The translations under genes and the position numbers were made by a program. A stretch of DNA of 64,000 bases, from positions 256,001-320,000 of the forward strand of contig CAVZJB010000017.1 of assembly GCA_963775425.1 (NCBI GenBank). Reading direction: 5' to 3'. Of this stretch, positions 13,249-59,869 are shown piece by piece (position 1 is the stretch's first letter; each line of letters opens with the position of its first letter). The notes beneath the pieces were generated by a model. It did not search any database and was not told where the DNA came from. It was given only the letters and a program-made list of their open reading frames with translations. Source of the DNA: an uncultured delta proteobacterium. GTDB taxonomy: Bacteria > Myxococcota > UBA727 > VGSZ01.

Positions 13249-13255
13249 GACGGAG

Positions 13256-17842: not shown

Positions 17843-18283
17843 TCAGCCACGCACTTCGATGCGCGTCTCGCCGATGCGGATGAGGTCCCCGAGCGCGAGC
17901 TCGGCCGACGGGATGCGCTTGCCGTTCAGGAACGTGCCGTTGGTGGACGCCATGTCGAGCAGCGAAGCGCCGGCCTCGTCGACGAAGACCATGGCGTGGC
18001 GCTGGGAGACCGAGTCGTCCTGGAGGCCGACGTCGGTGTCGCGCTCGAAGCTCGTGAGCAGCGCGCGCGCGCCGGCGTTCTTGGGCGTGGCGCGGATCTT
18101 CAGGTGGCGGGTGACTGCCTTTTCGTCTTCGTCGGACAGGCGGTGCGACGAGTGCTGCGTGATCATGCCCGTGGCGCCGATGAGGGTCTGGCTGCGCCCC
18201 ACCATCACGCAGTGCCCGACATTGACCACAATGGAGCGGCCGAAGTCCTTTCCTTTGACCACGACGAGGACGGCGCGTTTCAT
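17843..18283 (-). CDS. Stand-alone FHA-domain protein
   Basis: VGR, VSQRHA, DMASTNGTFLNG, LGDLIRIG; start overlaps the stop of the SIR2 gene. Confidence 0.9.
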   Translation of the reverse strand: MKRAVLVVVKGKDFGRSIVVNVGHCVMVGRSQTLIGATGMITQHSSHRLSDEDEKAVTRHLKIRATPKNAGARALLTSFERDTDVGLQDDSVSQRHAMVFVDEAGASLLDMASTNGTFLNGKRIPSAELALGDLIRIGETRIEVRG

Positions 18284-19827: not shown

Positions 19828-19857
19828 GGCGACGGATCTACCGCGCCCGGGCCGCGC

Positions 19858-19900
19858 TTGACTTCAATGCATGGTGCATATATGTTCTATGCATATATGC
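19858..19900 (+). promoter_or_regulatory. Sigma-70-like promoter overlapped by repeated palindromic operator
   Basis: TTGACT (19858)-N17-TATGTT (19881); TGCATATATG at 19875-19884 and 19890-19899; perfect palindrome GCATATATGC at 19891-19900. Confidence 0.65.
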
Positions 19901-31140: not shown

Positions 31141-31842
31141 TCAGCGCCGCAGACGGTCGGGCCGGCGCGCGTCCTTGAGCGGCGCGCGGGTGACGTCGCG
31201 GACGGCGTCGACGAAGGCGTCGCGGGCCGCTTCGAGCGCGTGCAACGGGCCCTTGAGGAACGCGCCGCCGAAGTTCGTCTCGGACGGCGGCGGGATGTGC
31301 TTGGCGAGGTCGACGTCGGCGGCCTTCAGCGCGGCGTCGACGGCGACCACGCTCTCGAGCGGCGGCGCGATCAGGTACGCCATGGGCTCGCCCGCCGCGA
31401 TGCCGGCCTCCTTGGACAGGTACGTGCCGGTCTCGGTGACGACGTGCGCGAGGAACGCAGGAGCTTCGTCGGCGCCGACCGCGCCTTCGGCGAAGGTCTG
31501 GAACCGCACGACGCGCAGGTGCTCGCGCAGCGCCCAGAGCGCCTCTGCGACGTGGTCCGGGTGCGCGCCCGCCACGATGCCGAGGATCTCCCCGGACAGC
31601 GGCCCCGACGCGTGCTTGCTCCCGGCGTAGAAGCTCCGCGCGAAAACGACGTCGACGGCGGCGAACTTGGTGGCGTGGTCGAGCGCCACGTACATCGCGT
31701 CGTCCTGGTCGCAGGTCAGCAGGCCCGCGCTCTTGTGGCGCTCGGGATCGAGCCCCAACGCCCGCGCGAGCTGCGCGTCGACCGCGTCAATTTGCCGGCA
31801 CGACAAGAGCGTCGGCCACAGGTCGACGAGCGCGTCGCTCAC
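31141..31842 (-). CDS. eutL: Ethanolamine utilisation BMC-T shell protein EutL
   Basis: DHATKFAAVDVVFARSFYAGSKH, GEILG, YLIAPPLE, PPSETNFGG; GTGA overlap with eutC. Confidence 0.9.
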   Translation of the reverse strand: MSDALVDLWPTLLSCRQIDAVDAQLARALGLDPERHKSAGLLTCDQDDAMYVALDHATKFAAVDVVFARSFYAGSKHASGPLSGEILGIVAGAHPDHVAEALWALREHLRVVRFQTFAEGAVGADEAPAFLAHVVTETGTYLSKEAGIAAGEPMAYLIAPPLESVVAVDAALKAADVDLAKHIPPPSETNFGGAFLKGPLHALEAARDAFVDAVRDVTRAPLKDARRPDRLRR

Positions 31843-32729
31843 GCCTGCGACCGCTTGGCGACGACGACCTGCGGCCGCACGAGGTGCAGGCCGCCGCCGC
31901 CGGCCTCGAAGCTGCGCTTCATGAGCCGCGCGCACTCGAGCGCGGCCTGCGCCGGCGGCATGCCGAGGCCGCGGACGTTGCTGATGCAGTTCTTCTCGGC
32001 GTTTTCCTGTCCGAGCCGCGGCTTGTATGCCGTGTAGATCGACAGGGAGTCGCCCGTGCCGAGGCCGGGGCGCTCGCCGACGAGGATGGCCGTGCTCTTG
32101 CTGCCGAGGAGCACGCCGATGTCATCGGCGACGCCGATGCGCGCGTGGCGCACGAACAGCGGCTTGCCCGTGCTGAGGCCCTGGGCCCTGAGCGCCTCGT
32201 CGAGCGCCGGCAGCAACACCGGCCCCTGGGTGAGCAGCGCGAGCGCGGCGAGGCCGTCGCCGGCGATGACCTGCACGTCGGCGCCCTTGGTGCCCTCGGC
32301 GAGCAGGCGCGCGCGGCTGTCGTCGTCGAGCCGGCGGCCGAGGTCGGGGTGCAGGAGGAACTCCGCGTGATCCTTGCAGCGGGTGCGCAGCGCGATGCAG
32401 CCGTGCTTGGCCGGCCAGTCCTCGGGCACCGATGAGTGCACGGCGTCGAGCGCGATGGCGTGCTCCGCGCGGAGCTGGATGTACGTCGACGTCAAATAGC
32501 GCGTGCCCGTGCGCCCCTGCACCACGCGCGCGGGCGTGGCCTCGACGATGCGCCTGGCCTCGAAGGGATCGCGCGGCCTCTGCGGCGGCGCGTCGCGGGG
32601 GACGCAGCCGTCGTCGCACGCGTCGGCGCCGGCGCCGGCGCGCTCGCGCGCTCGTTCACCGATGACGTCGAGCGCGAGGGACTCCCGCACCACCGCGCGC
32701 ACGATCTCCTCGAGGTCGCGCTTGTCCAT
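31839..32729 (-). CDS. eutC: Ethanolamine ammonia-lyase light chain
   Basis: TPARV..GRTG, HAIALDAV, PDLGRRL, DGL, GERPGL, NCISN. Confidence 0.93.
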   Translation of the reverse strand: MDKRDLEEIVRAVVRESLALDVIGERARERAGAGADACDDGCVPRDAPPQRPRDPFEARRIVEATPARVVQGRTGTRYLTSTYIQLRAEHAIALDAVHSSVPEDWPAKHGCIALRTRCKDHAEFLLHPDLGRRLDDDSRARLLAEGTKGADVQVIAGDGLAALALLTQGPVLLPALDEALRAQGLSTGKPLFVRHARIGVADDIGVLLGSKSTAILVGERPGLGTGDSLSIYTAYKPRLGQENAEKNCISNVRGLGMPPAQAALECARLMKRSFEAGGGGLHLVRPQVVVAKRSQA

Positions 32730-34108
32730 CAGGCGGCCCCCGCGCGCGTCGAAAAGATGGAGGCGTCGCCGGCCTTCTTGGTGAGCTTGCCGTTTCGCCA
32801 CAGCCCCATGGACTCGAGCCACTGTTCGAACTCGGGCGCGGGCCGAAGGCCGAGCACCTCGCGCAGCGCGGCGTTGTTGTGAAACGACGTGGTCTGGTAG
32901 TTGAGCATCACGTCGTCGCCCATGGGGATGCCCATCAGGTAGTTCACCCCGGCCATGCCGAGGAGCATCTCGAGGTTCTCCTGGTCGTTCTGGTCGGCCT
33001 CGGCGTGGTTGGTGTAGCAGGCGTCGCACCCCATCGGGATGCCCATGAGCTTGCCCATGAAGTGGTCCTCGAGGCCCGCGCGCGTGATCTGCTTGCCGGT
33101 GGCGAGGTACTCGGGGCCGATGAAGCCGACGACGCTGTTCAACAGGAACGGCTTGTAGCGCCGAGCGAGGCCGTAGGCGCGCGCCTCCATCGTGACCTGG
33201 TCGGTGCCGTGATGCGCGTTGGCGGACAGCGCGGTGCCCTGGCCGGTCTCGAAGTACATGACGTTCGCGCCCTGCGCCGTGCCTTCACGCCTGGTGAGGT
33301 CCCACGCCTCGTCGAGGAGCTTCACGCTGACGCCGAAGTTCTTGTTGGCGCCCTCGCTGCCGGCGATGGACTGGAACATGAGGTCGAGCGGCGCGCCGCG
33401 CTTCATGGCCTCCATCTGCACGGTGAGGTGCGCGAGCACGCAGTTTTGCGTGGGCACGCGGAACCTGCGCATCAACGCCTTGGTGGCCTTGAGGACGTCT
33501 GCGCACTTGTCGACGTCGTCGGTGCTGGGGTTGACGCCGATGACGGCGTCGCCGTTGCCGAAGCTGAGCCCGTCCTTCACCGCGGCGAGGACGCCCGTGG
33601 GGTCATCGAGCGGGTGATTGGGCTGCAGGCGCGACGAGATCCTGCCGGGGAGGCCGATGGTGTTGTTGCAGCGGGCGGTGACGCGGATCTTCTTGCCCGC
33701 CATGACCAGGTCCATGTTGGACATGAGCTTGGCCACCGCCGCCGCCATCTCCGGCGTGAGCCCCGGGGTCACCGAGCGGACGTCGTCGCCGCTGGTGCCG
33801 TCGTCGAGGATCCACTCGCGCAGCTCGGCCACGCTCCAGCCGCACACGCGCTTGTAGGCGCGCGCATCGAGGTCGTCCTCGACGACGCGCGTGACCTCGT
33901 CGAGCTCGTAGGGCACCGAGGGGTTTTCGCGCAGGTCCTTGAGGGTGAGCTCCGAGACCACGCGCTTCGCCGCGGCCATCTCGCGCATGGAGCGCGCCGC
34001 CAGCCCCGCCTGCTCGTCGCCGGAGCGGATCTCGTTGGCGCGCGCCAACGCCTCCTTCACCGACGAGAAGGAGTACGACTCCCCGAAGAGCGTCGTCGAG
34101 AGCTTCAC
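32729..34108 (-). CDS. eutB: Ethanolamine ammonia-lyase heavy chain
   Basis: RSGD, LTPEMAAAV, RLQPNHP, GDAVIGVNP, YFETGQG, CYTNH, NYQTTSFH. Confidence 0.96.
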   Translation of the reverse strand: MKLSTTLFGESYSFSSVKEALARANEIRSGDEQAGLAARSMREMAAAKRVVSELTLKDLRENPSVPYELDEVTRVVEDDLDARAYKRVCGWSVAELREWILDDGTSGDDVRSVTPGLTPEMAAAVAKLMSNMDLVMAGKKIRVTARCNNTIGLPGRISSRLQPNHPLDDPTGVLAAVKDGLSFGNGDAVIGVNPSTDDVDKCADVLKATKALMRRFRVPTQNCVLAHLTVQMEAMKRGAPLDLMFQSIAGSEGANKNFGVSVKLLDEAWDLTRREGTAQGANVMYFETGQGTALSANAHHGTDQVTMEARAYGLARRYKPFLLNSVVGFIGPEYLATGKQITRAGLEDHFMGKLMGIPMGCDACYTNHAEADQNDQENLEMLLGMAGVNYLMGIPMGDDVMLNYQTTSFHNNAALREVLGLRPAPEFEQWLESMGLWRNGKLTKKAGDASIFSTRAGAA

Positions 34109-34168: not shown

Positions 34169-35212
<1,044 letters not shown>

Positions 35213-35388
35213 GGACTCACCTCGACGACGGACGGTAGGCGCCGCACGCGCGGCCCACCATTCCCCGGAACAGGGGGAGCGGCCGCCGGCGGCGTCCGGA
35301 CGCCGCGTGCACGCGTCAAACCGGCCCTGAGGGGGCATGGACAGGGCCCCCGCTTTGGGACCATTGTGCCGCGCGCGGAGGATCGCTG

Positions 35389-36336
35389 ATGGCCCAGACG
35401 CTCGCGGATCTACAGAGGGACCACGCCGTCGACGGCGCCGCCTGGGAGGCGGGCCCGGGCGGCCTGCCCATGCTCATGGTCCGCACCGAGCAGTGCGAGG
35501 CCCGCGTGTTCGCGCACGGCGCGCACGTCGCCGCCTGGACGCCGGCGGGGCAGCGGCCGGGGCTGCACCTGTCGCCCAGGAGCGCGTTCGACCCCAAAAA
35601 GGCCATCCGCGGCGGCATCCCCATCTGCTTTCCCTGGTTCGGCGGCTTCACCAAAGGCGCGGGCCCGCAGCCGGGAGACCCCGACGTGAAGCTCCCCTCG
35701 CACGGCTTCGTCCGCACGCGCACGTGGGACGTCGACGAGGTGAGCCTCGAGGACAACGGCCGCGTGCGCGTGCAGATGAGCACCCGCGACGACGACGGCA
35801 CCCGCGCGCTGTGGGACGCGCCCTTCGAGGCGGTGCTCACCGCCACCCTCGGGCAGACGCTCGGCGTCTCGCTCGAGGTGAAGAACACCGGCGCCGGCGA
35901 CCTCGAGATCGAAGAGGCGCTCCACAGCTACATCGAGGTCGGCGACGTCGAGCAGGTGAAGCTCCTCGGCCTCGAGGGCACCGAATACATCGACAAGGTC
36001 GACGACTTCAAAAGCAAGCACCACGGCCGCGACCCCGTCGCGCTCACCGCCGAGATGGACAGCGTGTTCCTCGGCACCAGGAGCGCCGTCACCTTGGTGG
36101 ACCCGCTCCTCGAGCGCCACGTGAAGATCGAAAAGACCGGCAGCGCGGCCACGGTGGTGTGGAACCCGTGGCTGGTGAAGGCGCAGGCCATGCCCGACGT
36201 CGGCGGCGACGCGTGGCGCAGCTTCGTCTGCGTCGAGGCGGCCAACGTGCGGCCGCAACACGTGAGCATCCCCGCGGGGGCCAGCCACGTGATGTCGACG
36301 AGGATCGTGGTCATCCCCCAAACCCGGCAATCGTGA
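35389..36336 (+). CDS. D-hexose-6-phosphate mutarotase (aldose 1-epimerase family)
   Basis: AIRGGIPICFPWFG, HGFVR, ALHSY, VVWNPW, FVCVEAA. Confidence 0.92.
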   Translation: MAQTLADLQRDHAVDGAAWEAGPGGLPMLMVRTEQCEARVFAHGAHVAAWTPAGQRPGLHLSPRSAFDPKKAIRGGIPICFPWFGGFTKGAGPQPGDPDVKLPSHGFVRTRTWDVDEVSLEDNGRVRVQMSTRDDDGTRALWDAPFEAVLTATLGQTLGVSLEVKNTGAGDLEIEEALHSYIEVGDVEQVKLLGLEGTEYIDKVDDFKSKHHGRDPVALTAEMDSVFLGTRSAVTLVDPLLERHVKIEKTGSAATVVWNPWLVKAQAMPDVGGDAWRSFVCVEAANVRPQHVSIPAGASHVMSTRIVVIPQTRQS

Positions 36337-36347
36337 AGGAGGTCGTT

Positions 36348-36602
36348 ATGTCCGACGAAGATCTCAAGGCGGAGCTCGAGCGTCTCAAGAAGGAAAACGA
36401 GGCGCTCAAGCAGCAGAGCAAGCAGAAGCCCGGCCAGTTCACCATGAAGGTGAGCGAGAAGGGTGCCGTCAGCGTCTACGGCCTCGGCCGCTTCCCCGTC
36501 ACGCTCTACCAGGAGCAGTGGGGCAAGCTGCTCGACCACGCCGACGAGATCCGCGAGTTCATCAAGGCCAACGAGGGCTCGTTGAAGAAGAAGGAAGCCT
36601 GA
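36348..36602 (+). CDS. Small protein, coiled coil plus possible PC4-like ssDNA-binding fold
   Basis: AAGGAGG RBS; KVSEKGAVSVYGLGRFPVTLYQEQWGKLL; the PC4 assignment is inference only. Confidence 0.75.
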   Translation: MSDEDLKAELERLKKENEALKQQSKQKPGQFTMKVSEKGAVSVYGLGRFPVTLYQEQWGKLLDHADEIREFIKANEGSLKKKEA

Positions 36603-36603
36603 C

Positions 36604-37803
36604 ATGCCCACGAAGAAGAAGCCCGCCGAGGAGCCCGCCCCCGCGCCGCAGCCGATGGCGGGGCAGGTCCCCCCGGGCGCCTTCCCGCAGCCGGGCTACC
36701 CGCCGGGACAGTTCCCGCCGGGGCAGTTCCCGCCGGGCGCGTACCCGCAGCAGCCGGGCGCGTTCCCCCCGGGACAGATGGCCGGTGGGTATCCGCAGGC
36801 GCAGATGGGCAACCCGATGTTCGCCTTGATGCAGATGATGCAGCAGGCGTCCATGATGGGCGGCTTCGGCGGCGGCTTCGGCGTCGACCCTTCCGCGATG
36901 CCGTTTTCGCAGCCGGTGTCGGCGCAGCCCGACGGCGACCCCGGGCTCGACGCCGCCATCATCCGGCCGGCGGCGCTCGACAACCGGGTGAAGACGCAGC
37001 GGGCGCTGAAGCTCGGCAACGTGCTCGACCTCATGTGCCTCACCGACGACGGACAGCACGCGCTCGGCGGCGTGCCCGAGGGTTGCACCATCGTGTTCGT
37101 CGGACCGCCGGGCATGGGCAAGACCCGCACGGCCCTGTGCTCGCTCGCGCGCGTCGCGCTCACGGGGAAGAAGTGCGCGTTCGTCGTCGCCGAAGAGGGC
37201 TTTCACGACGAGGAGGGCCGCGGCCGCGACGACCTGTGCTCGCGCCTCGTCAAGGTCGGCATGGCCGTCACCGGCCTCGACGAGCAGAAGCTCGCCGACA
37301 AGGTCTTGTCGAACATGTTCGTGCTCGAGGCGCAGTACCACAAGAGCGTCACGTGGGACGACTTCATCAAGAAGTACCGCTACCTCGTCGAGAAGGAGGG
37401 CATCTCCTTCGTGGTCATCGACTCGCTCAACATGATCGACCCGACCAAGAAGGGCACCGCCGACAACCTCTCCGCCCTCAAGACGTACAACCACGAAAAG
37501 GGCGTCACCTGCATCTGCATCGGGCAGATCAAGGACACCGGCGAGCCCGTGGGCGGCGAGGCGCTCCAGCACACCGCCGACGTCGTCTTCCTCCTCGAGG
37601 AGATGTCGCTGTCGTCCAAGGAGATGGCCGAGCTGTGGGGCGGCAAGTACCGCGACAAGATCTCGGTGTTGCAGGTGGTGAAGAGCGTCACCACGCCCAC
37701 GCTGCAGTGTCTCGTGCGCGTCGATCGCAAGGACGGCACGGGGGAGCTGTGCGTCCACGACCTGCAGCCCAAGGAGTACCCACTCCTGCAGCCCAAGTCG
37801 TGA
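36604..37803 (+). CDS. KaiC/RAD55-type RecA-fold ATPase with low-complexity N-terminus
   Basis: LGGVPEG, Walker A GPPGMGKT, AEE, Walker B FVVIDS, GGEALQHTADVVFLL, VVKS. Confidence 0.85.
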   Translation: MPTKKKPAEEPAPAPQPMAGQVPPGAFPQPGYPPGQFPPGQFPPGAYPQQPGAFPPGQMAGGYPQAQMGNPMFALMQMMQQASMMGGFGGGFGVDPSAMPFSQPVSAQPDGDPGLDAAIIRPAALDNRVKTQRALKLGNVLDLMCLTDDGQHALGGVPEGCTIVFVGPPGMGKTRTALCSLARVALTGKKCAFVVAEEGFHDEEGRGRDDLCSRLVKVGMAVTGLDEQKLADKVLSNMFVLEAQYHKSVTWDDFIKKYRYLVEKEGISFVVIDSLNMIDPTKKGTADNLSALKTYNHEKGVTCICIGQIKDTGEPVGGEALQHTADVVFLLEEMSLSSKEMAELWGGKYRDKISVLQVVKSVTTPTLQCLVRVDRKDGTGELCVHDLQPKEYPLLQPKS

Positions 37804-37810
37804 GCGGCCG

Positions 37811-39781
37811 ATGACGGCGCGGCCGCACTTCGTCACCGGCGAGGAGGTCCGGGCGCACGCCAGGCAGGAGGGCCTCGGCTCGGTGTTTCGCGCCATCGGG
37901 CAGAAGCACCTGTCCGACGAGTACGTCGAGCGCATGCTCGGCCTCCCGCTGCACCTGCGCTTCGCCGTCGAGGGCAGGATGGACGAGGGCAAGAGCGTCG
38001 ACGACGACGTCCTCGCGAGCATCCCCTTCTACTCGTTGTGCAAGGGCCTCTTCCTCCCGCTGTCGATGCTGCAGCCGGAGGCGGCCGCCGCCTACTTCGG
38101 CATCCAGATCCCGCCGCCGCCCGATATGGCCGCCCGCGAGCAGCTCCTGCTCGACTTCCTCGGCAAGAAGGTCGGCCTGAGCCTGGTGCAGAAGCTCGCC
38201 TGCATCCTCGGCGATCCCTTCTGCGGACGGCGCTCCACGTTCAAGCGCGACTCGATGATCTCGCTTTTGGCGTCGATGTCGCTCGTCCCCAAGCGCGATC
38301 TCGTGGCGCGGCTGGCCCAGCCCGGCGTCGGCGACATCGCGGTGCTCTTCGCCGAGCACCGCCCCGCCGGCAAGGTCGAGCCGCTGCTCACGGCCGGCGA
38401 GGTGCTCGAGGCGCTGCGCCTGTTGCCGGGGGCGCCGCGCTCGCGGAAGTTCGAGGTGCTGCGCTCGCTCGTCACGCGCATGGGCAAGCTCGAGGCGTAC
38501 TTCCTCGCCAAGCTGCTGCTCCGCAAGGCGGCGTTCGGCTTCGACTACCAGGGCCCGCTCATCGCGCGCGCGCTCGCGGAGGCGTACGGCACGCCGAGCG
38601 CGCCCGTGGAGGCGGAGCAGGTGGCGCACGCGGTGGCGCTCACCGACGCCTTCAGGGTCGCCGCCGTCCTCGAGGAGGACGGGCCGGCGGGGCTGCGCAA
38701 GATCCAGTTGCAGCCGCTGGTGCCCATCCGTCCCGCGCTCGCGGCGCAGGGCGACGCGCCCATCACCAAGCTCCCGGTGTGGGTGGAGCGCAAGTACGAC
38801 GGCATCCGCCTGATGCTGCACAAGTCCACGGACCTGCGCGGCAACGTCCTCGTCGGCGCGTACACGCGTACGCGCGGAGATTGGCTCGAAGACATCGCCG
38901 GGCTCGAGGCCACGGTGAAGTACCTGCCCTGCCGGGACGCCATCGTCGACGGCGAGCTGCACGGCACCATCATCGACCTCGACGGCGACGGCGGCCGGCG
39001 GCCCGCGTCGGTCTACGACATCCTCGCGCACATCGGCGGCCAACCGCAGAAGCCGCTGCGCCTGCGCTACACGGCGTTCGACCTCGTGTACCTGAACGGG
39101 CGCGATCTCACGGCGCGGCCGCTGCAGGAGCGGCGGGTGCAGTTGCAGACGCTGCTGGCGCCGTTCCTGGCGGCGCCGTTGCCGTTGCCGGTGCCCATCG
39201 ACCTGAGCGAGGGCGCGCTCGCCGAGTCGATGGACGACGTGAACCGGTACTTCCATCACTTCAGGAACCAAGGCTACGAGGGCGTCATCGCCAAGGACCT
39301 CGACGGGCCCTACAAGATCGCCGCGCGCGATCCGTCGTGGGTGAAGCGCAAGCCGCTCGAGACGCTCGACCTCGTGCTCCTCGGCGGCGTGCTGGCGGTG
39401 ACCACCAAGGAGCGCGCGGGCATGTTCGGCTCGTACGTCATCGGCGCGCGCCGGCCCGACGGGTCCTTCGAGGACGTCGGCGACGTCGCCGGCGTCGACG
39501 TCGAGCGCGACCGCCTCATCCAGGCGCAGATCGTGCGCGAAGGGCTCATCACCGGTCGCCGCATCGAGCGCGCGTCGGCGTCGGGCGTGCGCCCCGGCCT
39601 CGAGCTGCGCCCGCAGATCGTGGTGACCATCAAGTGCGAGGGCGTGGTGCGCGACACCGTCACCAAGAAGCTCTCGCTGCGCGACCCGAAGATCGTCGTC
39701 CTGCGCACCGACAAGGGCGCCGGCGAGAGCGACACCACGCAGGCCCTCGAAGACCTCTACCGCAAAGAGCGCCTCGCGTAA
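37811..39781 (+). CDS. ATP-dependent DNA ligase
   Basis: Motif I ERKYDGIR, III VDGEL, IIIa AFDLVYLNG, IV EGVIAK, V WVKRK, VI SLRDPK..LRTDK; N-terminal helical domain. Confidence 0.92.
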   Translation: MTARPHFVTGEEVRAHARQEGLGSVFRAIGQKHLSDEYVERMLGLPLHLRFAVEGRMDEGKSVDDDVLASIPFYSLCKGLFLPLSMLQPEAAAAYFGIQIPPPPDMAAREQLLLDFLGKKVGLSLVQKLACILGDPFCGRRSTFKRDSMISLLASMSLVPKRDLVARLAQPGVGDIAVLFAEHRPAGKVEPLLTAGEVLEALRLLPGAPRSRKFEVLRSLVTRMGKLEAYFLAKLLLRKAAFGFDYQGPLIARALAEAYGTPSAPVEAEQVAHAVALTDAFRVAAVLEEDGPAGLRKIQLQPLVPIRPALAAQGDAPITKLPVWVERKYDGIRLMLHKSTDLRGNVLVGAYTRTRGDWLEDIAGLEATVKYLPCRDAIVDGELHGTIIDLDGDGGRRPASVYDILAHIGGQPQKPLRLRYTAFDLVYLNGRDLTARPLQERRVQLQTLLAPFLAAPLPLPVPIDLSEGALAESMDDVNRYFHHFRNQGYEGVIAKDLDGPYKIAARDPSWVKRKPLETLDLVLLGGVLAVTTKERAGMFGSYVIGARRPDGSFEDVGDVAGVDVERDRLIQAQIVREGLITGRRIERASASGVRPGLELRPQIVVTIKCEGVVRDTVTKKLSLRDPKIVVLRTDKGAGESDTTQALEDLYRKERLA

Positions 39782-39869
39782 TCGAGGCCGTCGCGAGCCC
39801 GCGCGGGAGGCGGCGGCGGCTCGATTCCTTGCGGGGCGAAAGGCCGGACGTACGATATCCTTGGGGCCC

Positions 39870-40646
39870 ATGCTCTTTGCGATTCCGCCGAGCCCGAGCC
39901 CAGACGCGCAGCGCGTGCATGCGCCGGCGCTGCAGGCCGCCCTGGCGCAACGCGTGCCCGGCGTCGTCGTCGAGATCGCACCGAGCTACGGCGCGCTCGG
40001 CGACGACTTGCTGTCGAAGCGCCTGACGGCCGCGTGGGCGCCGCCCATCGTGTGTGCGCGCGTGGAGATGGGCGGCGGCCGCGTGGCCCTCCGCGCCGTG
40101 CGCGGCGGCGTGACCACGTACCGCGCCGGGCTCGTGTGCCGCCACGACGAGCAGCTCGACCTGTCGCGCGCGGCGACGCTCGTCGCCGCGTGGGTCGACG
40201 AGGACAGCGCCGCCGGCTACCTGCTCGCGCGCTCCTGGCTCAAGGCGAGGAACCTCGACGCCGTTCGCGGCTTCAAGCGCGTTCTGTTCACAGGCAGCTA
40301 CGTCTCCGCCCTGCAGGCCGTGGCGGACCGGCGCGCCGACCTCGCCTCCATCTACATGACGTCGGAGGGCGCCGCGCCGCACAGCACGCTCGACGACGTC
40401 GACGACCTGTTGCGCGCCCGGCTGCGCGTCTTCGCCACCACCGGCGACACGCAGACCGACGGGATCGTCATCGCCCCCGGCGTCGCCGACGAGGAGGCCC
40501 GCGCGCTGGTGGACGCGCTCCTCGAGGTCGCCGCCTCCGACGAAGGCAGCCAGGCGCTGCAGGCCCTCCTCGCCTGCGACGAGCTTCGCCCCGCGCCCAC
40601 GCGCCCCACCTCCGCCGCGCTGCGAAACCTCGTCGACGTGAGCTGA
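39870..40646 (+). CDS. PhnD/SsuA-like substrate-binding-fold protein without signal peptide
   Basis: AWAPP, YRAGLV, AWVDEDSAAGYL, FTGSY..AL.AV..RADLA. Confidence 0.8.
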   Translation: MLFAIPPSPSPDAQRVHAPALQAALAQRVPGVVVEIAPSYGALGDDLLSKRLTAAWAPPIVCARVEMGGGRVALRAVRGGVTTYRAGLVCRHDEQLDLSRAATLVAAWVDEDSAAGYLLARSWLKARNLDAVRGFKRVLFTGSYVSALQAVADRRADLASIYMTSEGAAPHSTLDDVDDLLRARLRVFATTGDTQTDGIVIAPGVADEEARALVDALLEVAASDEGSQALQALLACDELRPAPTRPTSAALRNLVDVS

Positions 40647-40736
40647 GCGGCGTCACGTCTTGTGTCCGCCGTCGCCCGCGCCCCGGCGGCGATCGAGCGC
40701 CGAGAACCGGCGACGCGGCTCCGGTGTCCGTCGTGC

Positions 40737-41321
40737 GTGACCGATCTCGAACGGCGGCTCGCGCCGCGCGTGCTCGGCTCGCCCGTCGAGCGCTTCTGGC
40801 CCGTGCTCGCCGTCGTCCTGCTCGTCGACGTGCTCATCGTCGTCGCCCTCGTGCGCGAAGCGCGGCCGCGCCCCGCGTCGCTGCGGCTCGCCGCCGCCGC
40901 CGCCGTAGACCGCCCGATCGCCGTCGGCGCCGACGCCCACACCGCGCCGGCGCGCCTCGACCACGCGCCGCTGCTCCTCACGTCGGGAGCGCCGCGGGCG
41001 CCCGCGCTCGCGGAGGGCGATGGGCGACGCCTCGATCCCGGCGCCCTCGCCGATCGGGTCTGGGCCACCCGCTGCTCGGTCTGCCACGGCGCCGACGGGC
41101 GCGCCGACGGGCCGGCCACAAGAGCCCTCGAGCCGCGGCCGACGAGCTTCGCGAGCCCCGGGGCGCGGGGCAGCGACGCGGACCTCGCGAGCATCATCGT
41201 CGACGGCGGCGCGCGCTTCGGGTTGAGCCCGCTCATGGCCCCGAACAAAGACCTCGCGTCCAGGCCCGACGTCGTCGGCGCGCTCGTTCGCAAGATCCGC
41301 GGGTTCAGCGCACCTCGATGA
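40737..41321 (+). CDS. Membrane-anchored class I cytochrome c (start uncertain)
   Basis: TM helix, CSVCHG.DG..DG, PRPTSF, GLSPLM axial Met. Confidence 0.8.
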   Translation: MTDLERRLAPRVLGSPVERFWPVLAVVLLVDVLIVVALVREARPRPASLRLAAAAAVDRPIAVGADAHTAPARLDHAPLLLTSGAPRAPALAEGDGRRLDPGALADRVWATRCSVCHGADGRADGPATRALEPRPTSFASPGARGSDADLASIIVDGGARFGLSPLMAPNKDLASRPDVVGALVRKIRGFSAPR

Positions 41322-44300
41322 GCATCGCGGACAGCGGCAGGTGCGCCCACGTCGACAGCACGGGCTTGTTCGTGGCCGCCGACAGCGCCCGCGCGTAGGT
41401 GCGGAGCTGGCCGGCGAACGACCTCGAGAGCGTGACCGCGTCCTCGGTGATGTAGGTCTTGTGGTCCACGATGACGAAGCCCTCGTCCGTCTCGAGCACC
41501 AGGTCCATCTGCCCACGCACCACGGTGCCCGCGGGCAAGCGCTGCGTCACGTGCGACTCCCGGCGCACACGCGCGCCCGGCCAGCGCGCGAGCAGCGCGG
41601 CCCAGAGCCTGTCGGCGATGGTGACGACGTCGCCCGGCTGCAACAGCGCGGCGACGTCGTGGCTGTTCAACAGCCGCTCCGCCAGACGGAAGCGATCGTT
41701 GTCGTCGACGCTCTCCGCCGGCGCGAGCGGGGGCGCGCCCGCCGGGGGCACGCGCGGGTCCACGGCGAAGAACGCGTGCACCGCCGTCCCCAGGCGGGCC
41801 ATGGTGTCCTCGTCGGCGAAGTCGGCGATCATGAGCGGCGCCCCCAGCACCACCGGCTCCCCCGCCTCGCCCTCCTCGGCCACCGCCGACGGCGCCACGA
41901 ACGCAGGCGCGTGCTCGGCGGGCGGCAGCGGCGCGTACACCGCGCGCGTCCCCGGCGGCGGCGGCCGCGGCGGCCGCGCGCGCGGCTCGCGCACGCGCAT
42001 GACGACGTCGTGGCCGGCCCAGCGCGCGCGCCCTTCGCCGTCGGGCTCGCCGAGCGGCTGGCTGCCGTCGACGGCGAGGTGGCGCAGCACCGAGCTCTGC
42101 CCGGTCCACAGGTCGGTGCGTCCGCCGGGGCCGTTGTCGGAGACGACGCTCGGGAGGACGAGGCGGTCGCGGGCGCGCGTCCACCCGACGTACAGGAGAC
42201 GAAGCTCCTCGCGTTTTTGCGCGACGTCCATCGCCGCCTGCCACGGGTGTCGCGCGAGCACGTCGACGACGCCGCCCTTGCCGCGCTCCGTCGGCCGGTC
42301 CTGCCGATCACCGTAGGGGTGGGGCCAGTAGCGCACCCAACGGCCGCGCAGCGGATCGTTCACGTCGAGGCCGAGGCCGTCGCTCTCGACGTGCACGCCG
42401 CACACGCTCGGCGGCCAGTGGTGCACGAGCTGCGCGAGCACCACGACGGGCCACTCGCGGCCCTTGGCCTTGTGCCAGGTGGAGACCTCGACGGCGTCCT
42501 GGCCCGACACGTCGCCTTGCTCGTCGTCGGGGCTCTCCTCGCGGGAAGCGTCGTCGGCGAGCTCCTCGAGGCGCGCGAGGAAGCCGACCACGGTGGCGCC
42601 GGCGCCGGTGGCGACGCGCTCTTCGACGAAGCGCACGGCGAGCGCGCGCAGCGCGCCGAGGTTCGCGAGGCGCTGCTCGGCCTCGCCCCACGACGCGCAG
42701 ACGTCGCGCAGGCGCAGCGCCTCGATGACGAGGTCGACGGCGAGGACGACGCCGGCCTGGCGGTTTTCCTTGGCCACCTCCGCCACCGCCGCCACGTACG
42801 GGTCGACGACGAACGCGGCGGCGCCGTCGGGGCGAGGCGCGACGAGCGCGGCGAGCCACGCGTCGGGGTCTCCGGCGCCGCGGGTGAGGCGGGCGAGCTC
42901 GGCGGCGGCGAGGGCGTCGTGGCCGTCGTGAAAGAGCGCGAGGCCGGCGGCGAGGGCGCGCGCCTCGACGGAGGCGGCGAGGCCCCGCCGCCGTAGCACG
43001 GCGTGGATGCCCGCGTCCTGCAAGGCCGTCGCGATGTCGCGCGCCTGGCGGTTGGTGCGCGCGAGGACGGCGATGTGGCGGGCGGCGGCGCTGACGACGG
43101 CGCCGCTGCGCTCGCGCACGGTGACCTCGTCGTCCTCGATGAGCTCGGCGACGCCCGCGGCGATCTCTCGTGCGACGAGCTTGTGGTCGCTGAGCCGCCA
43201 CCGCTCGAGGAACGCGCCGAGGCCGGGCGGCTCCACCTCGAGCTTGGCGGTGATGTGCACCCGATCCGCGGGGACGCCCTGGGCGGCGAACGCCGGCGCG
43301 AACAGTGACGACGTCAAAGACACGAGCGCGGGCCGGCTGCGGTAGCTGACGCTCAAGGGCTCGGAGCTGGTGGCGATGGCGTCGATGACCGCTTCCATGA
43401 GGCGCGGGTCGGCGCCCCGAAAGCCGAAGATGGCCTGCTTCTGGTCGCCGACGAAGACGGTCTTTTCGGCGAGGGCGCTCAGCTCGGTGAGGATGGCGAG
43501 CTGGAGCGGGCTCGTGTCCTGGAACTCGTCGACGAGGACGAGGCCGATCTGCTCCTTGAGCTGCGGGCGGACCGACGGGTTTTGCAGGAGGGAGAGCGCG
43601 AACGCCTCCTGGTCGACGAAGTCGAACACACCCCACGAGCGCTTCTCCGCCTCGTAGCCGTCGCGGGCGCGGGCGGCGATGGCGAAGACGGTGCGCACGG
43701 CGAGCTCGAGGTCGGCACGCAACTGCGGGTGGTCGACGTGCATCTCGCCGAACCTGCGGAGCACCGTCATGTGCGAATCGCCGAACGCCCGCCAGCGCGG
43801 CCACGGGATGCGCTCGCCGCGCTTGAAGGCGCGCTGGACCTCGCGCAGCTCCTGCCGCTCCTGGCGCGCGCTGTCGAGCTTGGGCTCCTCGCCGGCGAGG
43901 ACCTGCTCGATGACGGCGAGGAGCTCTGTCTCGAGCGCGGCGCCGTCGCCGGGCGCGGGGAGGGTGGCGAGGAGCTCGTCGAGGCTGCGGCGCGCGCACT
44001 CGTCGAGGTCGACGGCGGCGCCGTTTTCGCGGGCGCGATCGATGATGACCTTGGCGGTGATGTGCCAGTTGAGGCCGCCGAAGCGGCGGTCGAGCTCCTC
44101 GAGGACGGCGCGCTCGTCCTCGGTGACCTGCTGCTCGAGGGCGTTTTTGAGCGACTGCTCGGCGAGGCGCTCGTCGAGGGTCATCAGCTCCGGGGAGAGC
44201 CCGAGCTCGAACGCGTGCTCGCGGACGATGTGCGCGCACACGGAGTGGATGGTGCCGATGCGGGCGGCGGCGAGGCGGTGCGCGAGCAGGACCTCACCGG

Positions 44301-44484
44301 CGTCGAGGAGCGCGCGGCGCACGCGCGCGGCGAGCTCGGCGGCGGCGGCGCGGGTGAAGGTGACGGCGATGACGCGCTCGGGCGCGATGGGGTCTTGTTC
44401 GCGGAGCAGCTCGCGCTTGAGCTCCTCGGCGAGCCTGTAGGTCTTGCCGGTGCCGGCGCTGGCCGAAATGACCTCGGTCCTCAC
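41305..44484 (-). CDS. UvrD-family helicase with C-terminal RecB-type nuclease (AddA-like)
   Basis: ASAGTGKT, TFTRAAA, VDEFQDTS, VGDQKQAIFGFRGA, HKAKGREW, LYVGWTRA; nuclease GQMDL..IVDHKT..QL..Y; GTGA overlap with the upstream gene. Confidence 0.92.
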   Translation of the reverse strand: MRTEVISASAGTGKTYRLAEELKRELLREQDPIAPERVIAVTFTRAAAAELAARVRRALLDAGEVLLAHRLAAARIGTIHSVCAHIVREHAFELGLSPELMTLDERLAEQSLKNALEQQVTEDERAVLEELDRRFGGLNWHITAKVIIDRARENGAAVDLDECARRSLDELLATLPAPGDGAALETELLAVIEQVLAGEEPKLDSARQERQELREVQRAFKRGERIPWPRWRAFGDSHMTVLRRFGEMHVDHPQLRADLELAVRTVFAIAARARDGYEAEKRSWGVFDFVDQEAFALSLLQNPSVRPQLKEQIGLVLVDEFQDTSPLQLAILTELSALAEKTVFVGDQKQAIFGFRGADPRLMEAVIDAIATSSEPLSVSYRSRPALVSLTSSLFAPAFAAQGVPADRVHITAKLEVEPPGLGAFLERWRLSDHKLVAREIAAGVAELIEDDEVTVRERSGAVVSAAARHIAVLARTNRQARDIATALQDAGIHAVLRRRGLAASVEARALAAGLALFHDGHDALAAAELARLTRGAGDPDAWLAALVAPRPDGAAAFVVDPYVAAVAEVAKENRQAGVVLAVDLVIEALRLRDVCASWGEAEQRLANLGALRALAVRFVEERVATGAGATVVGFLARLEELADDASREESPDDEQGDVSGQDAVEVSTWHKAKGREWPVVVLAQLVHHWPPSVCGVHVESDGLGLDVNDPLRGRWVRYWPHPYGDRQDRPTERGKGGVVDVLARHPWQAAMDVAQKREELRLLYVGWTRARDRLVLPSVVSDNGPGGRTDLWTGQSSVLRHLAVDGSQPLGEPDGEGRARWAGHDVVMRVREPRARPPRPPPPGTRAVYAPLPPAEHAPAFVAPSAVAEEGEAGEPVVLGAPLMIADFADEDTMARLGTAVHAFFAVDPRVPPAGAPPLAPAESVDDNDRFRLAERLLNSHDVAALLQPGDVVTIADRLWAALLARWPGARVRRESHVTQRLPAGTVVRGQMDLVLETDEGFVIVDHKTYITEDAVTLSRSFAGQLRTYARALSAATNKPVLSTWAHLPLSAMLIEVR

Positions 44485-47210
44485 CGTGCGCCCCGGGACG
44501 ACGTCGACTGAGGCGCCGACTGGACAGGCGGGGCGGCCGGCGACGACCCCGTCCCCCCCGAGGCCGGCGCGGCGCCCGCCGCCGCGGGCGCGCGGCCGGT
44601 GAGGTTCTCGCCGCCGGGGAGCGCGCGGCCGCACAGGAGGGAGAAGCGACAGTGCCGGCACGGAGGCGCGATCAAGAGGTCGTCGTCGAACGCCTGCGAA
44701 CGAAGCTCGTAGAGCCGCTTGCCGACGCCGGGAGCGTCGCAGCGGCCCGCGGCGATGTCGGCCTCGACGTCGTGCGCCTTCCGCTTGATGCGGTCGGCGG
44801 TCCACGCGACGTCGTGCGAGCCGGGGTCGACGGCCTGCTCGCCGCCGAGCGCCTCGTCCGTGGTCAACAGGCGGCGGCTGCGGATCTGGTAGTAGCCGAC
44901 GCCCGGCCACGGCGACGACGGCTCCCGCAACAACGACGCGTAGACCGCGAGCTGCACCGCCGTCCCCTGCAACAGCTCGCGCAGGCGCCGGCGCTCGCTG
45001 CCGCTCTTGTGATCGACGACGACGAGCGCGTCGCCGCGCTGCACCACAAGATCGAGCCGCCCGAGCATCGCGCGCCCCTCGACGCCCTTCTTGATGTCGA
45101 GCTCCACGTCGCGCACCGTGAAGCCCCGCTCGAGGAGCAGCTCCACGAGGTGCTCCGACGCCCTCGCCACAAGGTCGCGCGCCCGCGTACGCTGCGTGGC
45201 CTCCACGGGCCGCAGCAGCACCGCCGCTCGCCGCGGCACGCGCTCGTCGAAGATCGCGCGCGCGCGCTCCCCGGCCAGCGCCGCCGTCGCCGGCCGCTCC
45301 GCCAGCACCCGCGCCAGCACGTCGTGGGCGAGGTCGCCGAAGAGCTTCCCGCCCGACGGCAGCCGGCGCGCCCGCGCCTTCAGGCCTGCTCGCTCGAGCA
45401 CCGCGCGAAACGAGCAGCCGAGCAGCGACTCCGCCTTCGTGGCCGTCTCCTCGACGGGGCGCTGCACGCTCCCCGCCGGGAAGCGCCACGCCGCCTGCGG
45501 CGTCGCCACGTCGCGGCCCTTGAACCCCTTCTTCGCCATCCCGCGCGGCGCCAACGTCCCCACCTCGAGCGCGCGCACCGCTTCGGCGCCCGCCGCACGC
45601 GCGACGACCTCGTCCCACAACGGGTGCGGATGCCCCGCGTCTCCCTTGCGATCGCGGCGCGGACAGCACAGCACCAACGTCGACGACGCCGACGTCAGCG
45701 GCCGCTGAAACTGCGCCGCGCGCTGCTCCGCCGCCCGCCCCGGCTCCGGCAACGCGACGCCCATCTCGAGGAGCGCCGCCCGCTCCGCGCGCGTCACCGA
45801 CGGCGTCCGCAACGCCGGCTCCGCCGCGGCCGTGAAGCTCCACCACACCACGTGCGCGCACGGGCCGGCGACCGCGCCGGGGTCGCGCACCTGCGCGAGC
45901 CCCGCCGACGCCTTGCGCGCGCGCATCGGGCGCACGCCCGCCGTCGCCTGCTCGACGACGCGCATGAGCTCCGTGCGCGACAACGCCGGCGCTCCGAACG
46001 CGCGCGCGATGCGGCGGATGCTCGCGACCTGCGCGATGGCGCCGAGCACCCTGTCGCCGTCGGCGTCGCTCTCCATGCGGCGCTGCAGCCAACGATTCAC
46101 GAAGGTGAGCCGCTCCTCGAGCACCGCGAGCGGCATCGTCGCCGCGTCCGCCGACGGTGCGGAGAACAGGGCCGCCACGCGCGCGCGCGCCTTCGCCGCC
46201 TCCGCCTGCGGCAACGTCGCCAGACGGCGCTCGAGCGCTTGGCGCCAGGCGTCGCCGTCGACGGCCGGCTCCCTCGCCAGCGCGCGCGCCAGGGAGCCGG
46301 CGATGCGCTTGCGCAGCGGCGACGCCGGCAGCGTGAGCAGCTCGAAGGCGCGCTCCGGGTCGCGCTCGGGCCACGCGAGCGCCACGACGAGCGGCGCCAC
46401 CTGCAGCAGACCGTCGTCCCCGCGCTCGCCGCGGGCGCCCAGCGTCGGGAGGCCGAGCCGCGCGAGCCCCACGTCGAGGAGCGCGTCACCGCCGACGACG
46501 AGCACCGGCTCGCCCTCGGGCAAAGACGCGACATGCGCGGCCACCTCCGCGGCCGCCTCCTCCGGGCAGTCGGCGCGCAGGAGCTGCAGCGAGCCGTCGC
46601 TCTGCGGATGGAAGGGCGCGCGCCGCGCGCGATGGAGATCGAGGGCGCCGCCCGGGCCCTCCTCGAGCGCAGCCGGTGCGATCCGCGTCCCCCGCGCACG
46701 CAGCGCCGCGACCACGCGCCGCCACGCGGGCGAGAGCGCGTCCTCGGGATCGCAGAGCGCGACGTCGTCGATCGCGCAGGCGCGAGCGCCGAGCTCCCGC
46801 ACCACCGCCGCGAGCCGGTCACCCGGACCTGCGACGACGCCGCGGCACACGCCGACGACGTCGCGCAGACGCGGCGGCAGGCGCAACGCGTCGGCGTCGT
46901 CGAGCGCCGGGTCCAGGCCGGCGTCGACGAGCGCGTCGCGCAGCCGCAGCACCGTGCGCGCCACGGCGAGGGGATCCGCGTCGAGCGAACGCGACCACGC
47001 GCCCTCCCGCGTGCGCAGCGCCGGCACGAGCGACGCCGCGCGCTCGGCGCGGGTGACATCGCTGTGCAGCCCGCCGAGGCCGAGCCCGGTCTCGAGGATC
47101 TTCAGGAAGCCGAGCGGGCCGACCCACGCATCGTCGAGCGCGGCCTCGGCGTCCCCGAGGGGACCGGGCCAGGCACCGCTGTCGAAGCTGCTGCCGAAGA
47201 CGACGCGCAC
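44481..47210 (-). CDS. PD-(D/E)XK nuclease, AddB-like
   Basis: Degenerate helicase-like N-terminus; CSFR, GDLAH, GRLDL, DHKSG, QLAVY, CRHCRFSLLC (Fe-S-type Cys). Confidence 0.88.
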   Translation of the reverse strand: MRVVFGSSFDSGAWPGPLGDAEAALDDAWVGPLGFLKILETGLGLGGLHSDVTRAERAASLVPALRTREGAWSRSLDADPLAVARTVLRLRDALVDAGLDPALDDADALRLPPRLRDVVGVCRGVVAGPGDRLAAVVRELGARACAIDDVALCDPEDALSPAWRRVVAALRARGTRIAPAALEEGPGGALDLHRARRAPFHPQSDGSLQLLRADCPEEAAAEVAAHVASLPEGEPVLVVGGDALLDVGLARLGLPTLGARGERGDDGLLQVAPLVVALAWPERDPERAFELLTLPASPLRKRIAGSLARALAREPAVDGDAWRQALERRLATLPQAEAAKARARVAALFSAPSADAATMPLAVLEERLTFVNRWLQRRMESDADGDRVLGAIAQVASIRRIARAFGAPALSRTELMRVVEQATAGVRPMRARKASAGLAQVRDPGAVAGPCAHVVWWSFTAAAEPALRTPSVTRAERAALLEMGVALPEPGRAAEQRAAQFQRPLTSASSTLVLCCPRRDRKGDAGHPHPLWDEVVARAAGAEAVRALEVGTLAPRGMAKKGFKGRDVATPQAAWRFPAGSVQRPVEETATKAESLLGCSFRAVLERAGLKARARRLPSGGKLFGDLAHDVLARVLAERPATAALAGERARAIFDERVPRRAAVLLRPVEATQRTRARDLVARASEHLVELLLERGFTVRDVELDIKKGVEGRAMLGRLDLVVQRGDALVVVDHKSGSERRRLRELLQGTAVQLAVYASLLREPSSPWPGVGYYQIRSRRLLTTDEALGGEQAVDPGSHDVAWTADRIKRKAHDVEADIAAGRCDAPGVGKRLYELRSQAFDDDLLIAPPCRHCRFSLLCGRALPGGENLTGRAPAAAGAAPASGGTGSSPAAPPVQSAPQSTSSRGAR

Positions 47211-55728: not shown

Positions 55729-55849
55729 CGAGCACCTCAGTCTCGGCCTACAAACGGGCGAGGTGCGGCATTGATCTCACAGTGTCCCGAAGCTCGACGA
55801 CGCCCCGCGACGCGACACGGTCGAGCGCCTGCCGTGAGATGCTTTCAGC

Positions 55850-57889: not shown

Positions 57890-57951
57890 GCCGCCTGCGC
57901 CCTTGATCTCTCGGGGCCTCTCGCGGGAGCGTGCGCTCCACCGGGGCTTTG

Positions 57952-59865: not shown

Positions 59866-59869
59866 GCCC

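Follow-up and report, generated by a model that had tools for sequence, protein, structure and literature searches.

The 64,000-nucleotide stretch of DNA analysed here (the window) comes from contig CAVZJB010000017.1 of an uncultured delta proteobacterium (GTDB lineage Myxococcota; UBA727; VGSZ01; assembly GCA_963775425.1, positions 256,001 to 320,000 of the forward strand). Between 36348 and 39781 it carries three co-oriented genes, encoding a small protein, a KaiC/RadB(aRadC)-type ATPase and an ATP-dependent DNA ligase. A first-pass annotation, made from the letters alone, had proposed that the three form a DNA-repair operon, with the small, supposedly PC4-like protein as a possible single-stranded DNA (ssDNA)-binding accessory to ATPase-assisted ligation. 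The comparisons described below retain the ATPase and the ligase as a conserved pair, which probably works as a two-protein DNA-sealing module, and leave the small protein outside it.

The ATPase and ligase genes

36348-36602, + strand: open reading frame (ORF) of the small-protein gene (84 aa), coding for a coiled-coil/beta-hairpin/helix protein
36604-37803, + strand: ATPase gene (399 aa), coding for a KaiC/RadB(aRadC)-type single-domain RecA-fold ATPase
37811-39781, + strand: ligase gene (656 aa), coding for an ATP-dependent DNA ligase with an N-terminal extension, a DNA-binding domain, a nucleotidyltransferase (NTase) domain and an OB domain

The ORF positions agree with the gene order, shared orientation and spacing first described, including a mutarotase gene upstream: the gaps are 11 bp from the mutarotase gene to the small gene, 1 bp from the small gene to the ATPase gene and 7 bp from the ATPase gene to the ligase gene. 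The G+C content of the window is about 72% and third-position GC reaches 0.93-0.95 in all three frames, which marks them as coding.

The ATPase contains one KaiC-type RecA domain (PF06745, residues 154-338, E 1.8e-13, 50.8 bits against a cut-off of 26.6), and Pfam finds no zinc-finger or Lon domain in it. Its scores against RecA (TIGR02012, 20.8 against a cut-off of 325.3) and RadA/Sms (TIGR00416, 18.4 against 403) are far too low for membership, bearing out the original description of a single RecA-fold ATPase that is neither RecA nor RadA. It also falls below the cut-offs of the RadB model (TIGR02237, 33.1 against 172.4 bits), the KaiC_arch_4 or aRadC-type model (TIGR03881, 29.8 against 247.8 bits) and the circadian KaiC model (NF006799, 14.2 against 408 bits), and it has a single domain, not a tandem of CI and CII. 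Foldseek returned the KaiC CI domain, PH0186 and RadA as top matches to the core (E ~1e-12), with a template-modelling (TM) score to the target of ~0.7 for the KaiC CI domain, and among solved single-domain proteins a profile search ranks the Sulfolobus RadA paralogue Sso2452 first (2w0m, E 7.1e-10). RadB and aRadC are its nearest relatives, the ATPase itself being a member of neither family. The following elements of the ATPase gene are conserved or otherwise distinctive.

36604..36810 (residues 1-69), + strand: low-complexity P/Q/G/M-rich N-terminal region, predicted to be disordered (predicted local distance difference test, pLDDT, <50), the P/Q/G/M-rich composition and predicted disorder continuing to about residue 110
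36811..36855 (residues 70-84), + strand: Met-rich helix NPMFALMQMMQQASM, predicted helical over 71-84, with N70, M72, Q77 and M78 invariant in 14 sequences
36886..36906 (residues 95-101), + strand: DPSAMPF motif, with D95, P96, A98, P100 and F101 invariant and F101 in the predicted interface
36943..36969 (residues 114-122), + strand: GLDAAIIRP pre-core segment, with G114, L115, I120, R121 and P122 invariant, a predicted ligase-docking peptide
37102..37125 (residues 167-174), + strand: Walker A GPPGMGKT, in invariant columns, with E197/E198 and the Walker B residue D273 further downstream

Among the aligned ATPases, GPPGxGKT of Walker A and VVIDS are invariant, and E197/E198 are presumably the KaiC-type catalytic glutamate pair. 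Residues 1-129 have no Pfam match at E<=10, and the N-terminal regions of homologues carry PGMM-type repeats of variable length. A regular expression for the N-terminal signature (Met-rich helix, xAxPF and GLDxxIIRP, all before Walker A) matches 76 of the 78 testable loci, the other two carrying visible variants of it. Homologues of the core number in the hundreds, with about 70% identity between records labelled Myxococcota, Planctomycetota and Acidobacteriota. The family is both tight and isolated: a full-library search, covering 1.84 billion representatives, yields only 117 at E<=0.001, 34 of them at E<=1e-30.

Like the ATPase, the Sso2452/aRadC-type RadA paralogues, RadB and PH0186/PH0284 are core-only, single-domain RecA folds with a KaiC-type Walker A and paired glutamates; unlike any of them, the ATPase has a bacterial distribution, a disordered N-terminus, the Met-rich helix, the PF motif, the IIRP segment and an obligate pairing with a ligase. 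Phage Sak4, as described in the relevant part of PMC5928155, is likewise a RadB-like, core-only RecA homologue associated with ssDNA and a partner, a likeness at the level of fold class; the partner of Sak4 is SSB, not a ligase, and no relatives of the ATPase were found in the viral contigs and phage records given below.

The ligase is recognised most clearly by its NTase domain (PF01068, E 7.3e-21, 75.2 bits against a cut-off of 26.2), with a DNA_ligase_A_N match (PF04675, residues 132-243) slightly below its cut-off (23.4 against 24.6 bits) and an A_C match that is also weak. Its nearest solved relatives are the archaeal replicative ligases of Pyrococcus and Thermococcus (E ~1e-47 to 1e-49), and the profile alignment to the P. 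furiosus ligase 2cfm (E 7.9e-49) pairs profile positions 145-637 with chain residues 64-552, a start that falls inside the P. furiosus DNA-binding domain. The first-pass annotation had credited the ligase with all catalytic motifs, and motifs I, III, IIIa, IV, V and VI are indeed invariant in 30 orthologues. Besides those of motif I, the invariant motif residues are D380, G381 and E382; F423 and D424; E490, G491 and K495; W510, K512 and K514; and R632, D634 and K635.

38786..38809, + strand: motif I ERKYDGIR, with E326, R327, K328, D330, G331 and R333 invariant in the 30 orthologues; K328 is the adenylated lysine
37811..38230 (residues 1-140), + strand: family-specific N-terminal extension, which includes SIPFYSLC (residues 70-77, 38018-38041)

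The extension has no Pfam match at E<=10, its best PDB match by sequence has an E-value of 1.1, and an Atlas search returned nothing. As the profile alignment starts only at position 145 and the extension is unmatched, we describe the protein as a ligase of the usual DNA-binding domain, NTase and OB architecture with an extra N-terminal extension. The N-terminal domain of about 300 residues noted originally is thus present, and resolves into the DNA-binding domain common to such ligases and a family-specific extension of about 100-140 residues, in which H48, F73, L76, C77 and P83 are invariant in the 30 orthologues. The ligase lies below every NCBIfam ligase cut-off (PRK03180, 147.5 against 641 bits; dnl1, 134.6 against 217.8; LigA_Halo, 128 against 830; DNA_lig_bact, 68.1 against 400) and forms a separate clade of this architecture. 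It has the three-domain arrangement and all six NTase motifs in common with LigB and with archaeal and eukaryotic Lig1-type ligases; unlike them, it has the conserved extension, and its identity to ordinary LigB-type ligases of the same phyla is 28-34%.

Conservation of the pair and its predicted complex

The evidence that joins the two proteins comes first from gene order. Across 79 genome loci from Myxococcota, Acidobacteriota and Planctomycetota records, the ligase gene lies downstream of the ATPase gene on the same strand in 41, several of the 38 ligase-less loci having too little downstream DNA to judge. The association that the first-pass annotation had staked on synteny elsewhere therefore survives the comparison. 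No other widely conserved gene was found within -3.5/+5 kb of the ATPase gene by all-against-all clustering of 5772 ORFs from 80 loci, which otherwise gave shadow frames and small lineage-specific groups (Ser/Thr kinases, planctomycete DUF1559-like and TilS-like proteins, named by reading the sequences), and the neighbours of unlinked ligases (L092-L096) show nothing consistent. The conserved unit is two genes, ATPase and ligase, rather than the three first proposed.

Whole-genome searches of 393 genomes from three phyla (151 + 121 + 121) found both proteins in 21 genomes and only one of them in none. Within the window's own phylum, the ATPase occurs in 9 of 151 genomes and the orthologous ligase in the same 9 (E<=1e-177), while 10 further genomes carry only ordinary LigB-type ligases (31-34% identity). 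The two proteins share the same 10 of 121 genomes in the second phylum, where their genes are adjacent in 4 and apart in 6, and the same 2 of 121 in the third, both of these carriers having been known beforehand. Of five genomes lacking a ligase gene beside the ATPase gene, all five encode an orthologue elsewhere (57-58% identity).

The two proteins also appear to have travelled together. ATPase and ligase trees, built with FastTree only, share clades, including two odd placements (L017 and L006) in which a Planctomycetota row is nested in Myxococcota and an Acidobacteriota row stands beside Polyangia. Over 39 pairs from three bacterial phyla, pairwise identities of ATPase and ligase correlate with r 0.61, the medians being 70% (ATPase core) and 59% (ligase). 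Cultured carriers, by record title, include Chondromyces apiculatus DSM 436, Enhygromyxa salina SWB005 and Nannocystaceae bacterium ST9. Separately, five pair-bearing records of metagenome-assembled genomes (MAGs; L040, L041, L049, L018 and L053) are titled Enterobacteriaceae or Alphaproteobacteria; their sequences nest among Myxococcota rows and two of the isolate names contain 'MYXO', and these labels are probably wrong.

Structure prediction of the ATPase-ligase complex, suggested in the first-pass annotation, passed its controls. With the ligase alignment and ATPase residues 64-399 modelled 1:1, the complex scored 0.68 in each of three runs, and the best of 3 controls scored 0.00. Of 80 solved complexes 58 reach the scoring mark, as do 2 of 110 mismatched pairs; these rates hold only roughly here because custom alignments were used. 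The runs share at least 56% of their contacts, with a partner pLDDT of at least 72. The lowest-error contacts are predicted between ATPase residues 112-125, the GLDAAIIRP region, with 114-121 at its centre, and ligase residues 69-80, the SIPFYSLC region; others involve ligase residues 35-122 (most of the interface) and 154-222, together with ATPase patches at 251-259, 290-298 and 362-363. The predicted interface is made up of family-specific invariant elements of both proteins, and we know of no solved complex of a ligase with a KaiC-type protein that the predictor could have memorised. As a model, the complex supports binding between ATPase and ligase.

The pair may also extend into archaea. 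A divergent member of the ATPase family (44% identity) clusters with a MAG protein that NCBI labels Candidatus Thorarchaeota, and this Thorarchaeota-labelled homologue retains the same N-terminal architecture, Met-rich helix included. Two low-GC metagenome contigs (L098 and L099) encode ATPases 66-79% identical to it with a ligase gene directly after, complete on L098 (~650 aa) and truncated on L099, where the contig ends. Over residues 38-635, N-terminal extension included, the window's ligase and that of L098 align at 28% identity (E 4e-50). Three further divergent members of the ATPase family (P0250, P0248 and P0254), 36-37% identical to the Thorarchaeota-labelled protein, carry C-terminal extensions; P0250 and P0248 share a conserved one that ends in ...GTG(I/V)xGV(D/E)x(I/V)D(W/F).

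A probable DNA-sealing module and its alternatives

The shared gene order, complete co-occurrence, matching trees and a complex model that stands up to its controls together lend strong support to the core idea of the first-pass annotation, in which an ATPase works with a ligase of its own, apart from the Ku/LigD, PrimPol and Lhr contexts. The closest characterised relatives also act on DNA, Sso2452 as an ssDNA binder and the archaeal ligases in replication. We consider it probable that the pair constitutes a two-protein DNA-sealing module in which the KaiC/RadB(aRadC)-type ATPase binds its dedicated Lig1/LigB-type ligase. Actual binding of the two proteins, DNA as their substrate and an action of the ATPase on DNA are what we infer from these comparisons. 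Contact would be made by the PF...GLDxxIIRP stretch of the ATPase (about residues 101-125) and a patch on its core with the ligase extension, through SIPFYSLC, and the adjoining face of the DNA-binding domain. By analogy with RadA paralogues, the ATPase may assemble in an ATP-dependent manner on damaged DNA, such as ssDNA gaps or annealed or aligned ends, and would tether or position the ligase at the damage through its pre-core peptide, leaving the ligase to seal the nick or break. The ATPase would in this way be to its ligase what PCNA is to Lig1 and Ku to LigD, a dedicated platform. Its long disordered, Met-rich N-terminus may be a flexible tether or an extra interaction site, and may resemble the disordered linker and PF tip of bacterial SSB.

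The genome encodes two NAD-dependent LigA genes, RecA, a two-domain KaiC and three further ATP-ligase loci elsewhere, as well as Ku and a LigD-like gene together on another contig. With two LigA genes, Ku and LigD, RecA and three further ATP-ligase loci at hand, the ATPase-ligase module is an accessory one. Accessory bacterial ATP-dependent ligases are understood only where their partners are known, as for Ku-LigD, LigC-PrimPolC and LigB-Lhr; the relevant passages of PMC7470946 list Ku/LigD, LigC-PrimPolC and a cluster of LigB with Lhr helicase, MPE and exonuclease as their contexts. None of these accounts for the locus, in agreement with the first-pass annotation: no Ku or PrimPol domain lies in or beside the ligase by Pfam and neighbour comparison, and no Lhr helicase, MPE or exonuclease is conserved by the ligase in the 79 loci, its neighbours in the window being the mutarotase, the small protein, the ATPase, a PhnD-like protein and a further ORF. 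Like the window's pair, Ku-LigD (non-homologous end joining), LigC-PrimPolC (base-excision repair), LigB-Lhr-MPE-Exo and PCNA-Lig1 couple a ligase genetically and probably physically to a DNA-binding targeting partner; unlike it, none has a RecA-fold ATPase as that partner. A full-text literature search, with subscription journals and supplements outside its scope and a prior mention therefore possible, found no publication linking a KaiC/RadA-paralogue ATPase to an ATP-dependent ligase. The pair would represent a fourth kind of ligase partnership, set apart by a RecA-fold ATPase in the role of partner; across three bacterial phyla, no sampled genome has one of the two proteins and not the other. 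It would offer a function-linked handle on single-domain KaiC/RadA-paralogue ATPases outside archaea and on divergent LigB-type ligases, and the predicted IIRP/SIPFY interface can be mutated, making the binding hypothesis directly testable.

More tentatively, and with considerable doubt, the pair could be a holoenzyme common to bacteria and Asgard-type archaea, in which the KaiC/RadA-paralogue ATPase would form rings or filaments on DNA with gaps or breaks, anneal or align the strands there and hold its own Lig1-type ligase on a flexible N-terminal tether, allowing sealing independent of Ku and PCNA; the two genes would then have moved between domains as one unit.

Several observations weigh against a DNA-sealing module. 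Many KaiC-family proteins are signalling ATPases and not DNA enzymes, and we infer DNA binding by the ATPase from distant relatives only, namely Sso2452 at E 7.1e-10, itself described as a tight ssDNA binder in the part of PMC8708640 that treats it. LigB-type ligases seal nicks well alone, according to the section of PMC7470946 concerned with them, so the need for a partner is not self-evident. The complex score is the model's confidence and not a measurement, the AlphaFold2 (AF2) monomer model of the ATPase is poor (mean pLDDT 56), and the complex was modelled 1:1, KaiC/RadA-type ATPases usually being rings or filaments. Counting related genomes separately inflates the co-occurrence relative to the number of independent events; many Planctomycetota have the two genes unlinked; and a weak search for fused ATPase-ligase proteins of 700-2000 aa found none at E<=1e-20. 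The archaeal assignment, finally, rests on a MAG label.

A first alternative is a regulatory pair, in which the ATPase, as a KaiC-like signalling or autokinase switch, would bind the ligase and control how active or stable it is, for example during development or stationary phase, while not itself acting on DNA. In its favour, KaiC CI domains rank highest among the fold matches, strand 2 is followed by paired glutamates, and the predicted interface covers the N-terminal face of the ligase DNA-binding domain (154-222), where it could occlude or release DNA binding; LigB-type ligases, too, are described in PMC7470946 as sealing nicks autonomously. We nonetheless judge this reading unlikely: the ATPase is single-domain, unlike the clock KaiC, its surroundings show no conserved kinase, phosphatase or sensor partner, and profile comparison places it closest, among solved single-domain proteins, to Sso2452, which binds ssDNA.

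The operon as first proposed, with the 84-aa protein as a PC4-like, ssDNA-binding accessory of an ATPase-ligase machine, draws on the 1-bp gap to the ATPase gene, a strong Shine-Dalgarno site (GAAGGAGG) 5' of the small gene's ATG and the adjacency of the trio in the closest relatives. That adjacency is confined to 4 of the 79 loci (L001-L004) and to three genomes (G120, G129 and G131), and in G034 and G073 the small gene and the pair lie on different contigs. The small protein occurs in 36 of the 151 own-phylum genomes against 9 for the pair, including all 9 pair carriers and 27 genomes without the pair, and it was not found in any of the five pair carriers from other lineages. Sister genomes without the pair have the EutB gene, the small gene and the PhnD-like gene in that order; compared with them, the window has exactly the ATPase and ligase genes inserted between the small gene and the PhnD-like gene, so that the pair behaves as a two-gene cassette beside a resident gene. 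Between the small gene and the EutB gene, the window carries the CAP gene and the mutarotase gene as well.

The PC4 likeness fares no better. PF02229 is not matched by the small protein at E<=10, and just one of 24 family members matches it, marginally (E 0.03); in a Foldseek search of its monomer against the PDB set the PC4 structure 4usg_A ranked second at E 6.3 (TM 0.29/0.36), with nothing at E<=0.001. The best VIA-align Z in a wide search was 3.0, the ESM Atlas returned unnamed clusters only, and the family as a whole has no Pfam family or fold match, leaving the name without support from any of the four resources. The AF2 model, with a pLDDT of 76, has a long helix, a beta-hairpin and two helices. 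The family is very large, with at least 7994 matches, mostly of 82-85 aa, 70-92% identity among the 120 matches listed and an invariant core of VSxKGxxSxYGxGRFPVTLYxEQW. We therefore find a third component in this protein very improbable, given its larger family, its wider distribution, the failure to find it in the five carriers of other lineages and its staying in place without the pair. Co-transcription of the small gene with the pair is likely here, but incidental.

Still less probable is a ligase substrate other than chromosomal DNA damage, such as RNA or DNA-RNA hybrids under repair or an extrachromosomal element under processing. The lack of a Pfam or PDB match for the N-terminal extension leaves some room for this idea, against which stand the full Lig1/LigB architecture with its DNA-binding domain and motif VI, nearest relatives that are replicative DNA ligases, and the absence of RNA-repair genes conserved nearby. 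The least probable of the readings is a mobile-element or defence-derived cassette, a phage or plasmid replication or anti-phage module and not host repair: the pair does behave like an indel cassette between conserved neighbours, with some cross-phylum tree placements and a patchy spread (9/151, 10/121 and 2/121 genomes), but it is a single-copy gene with housekeeping flanks and trees that mostly follow phyla, its surroundings contain no conserved integrase or repeat, searches of viral_contigs, 72,556 plasmids and 50,697 phage records yielded no relative, and PADLOC gave only weak P-loop matches (mad8 3.5e-4, DrmD 4.4e-3) and PHROGs generic families.

Neighbouring genes and other features of the window

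35389-36336, upstream of the small gene: aldose-1-epimerase (mutarotase) gene (Aldose_epim, E 1.4e-36)
39861-40646, downstream of the ligase gene: PhnD-like binding protein gene
40662-41321, downstream of the PhnD-like gene: further ORF
41305 to ~44470, opposite strand, convergent: AddA-like gene (UvrD/PD-(D/E)XK), 1.5 kb past the ligase gene
44481-47210, opposite strand, convergent: AddB-like gene, beyond the AddA-like gene

A CAP-domain gene and the EutB gene lie upstream on the opposite strand. The AddAB-like pair that the first-pass annotation placed about 1.5 kb downstream is present, on the opposite strand; as a conserved neighbour it does not hold up, with one weak AddB match (L065) among the loci compared. 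Neither the small gene nor the AddAB-like genes belong to the conserved module; they adjoin it. A search for the SOS box GAAC-N4-GTTC with at most one mismatch gave 13 matches in the window against 19.5 expected and none between 34910 and 40748. A sigma-70 promoter scan gave no match, and no + strand terminator was seen in 35000-41500.

Elsewhere in the window, two bacterial alpha-2-macroglobulin genes (1997 and 2186 aa) lie in 4880-13347 (- strand) and 49216-55776 (- strand), the first adjoining a PBP1c-like transglycosylase/transpeptidase at 4880-7369. Within 31141-34108 (- strand), the gene for EutB, the large subunit of ethanolamine ammonia-lyase (E 6e-207), has those for a BMC-domain protein and a universal stress protein as neighbours, and the group may be a microcompartment remnant. 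A 527-aa protein at 18280-19863 (- strand) has a SIR2_2 domain (E 1.5e-29), which is common in anti-phage defence proteins. Towards the end of the window, a Castor/Pollux-type RCK ion-channel homologue (PF06241, E 5e-28, 57907-59865, + strand) is followed by a class-3 fructose-1,6-bisphosphatase at 59798-61801.

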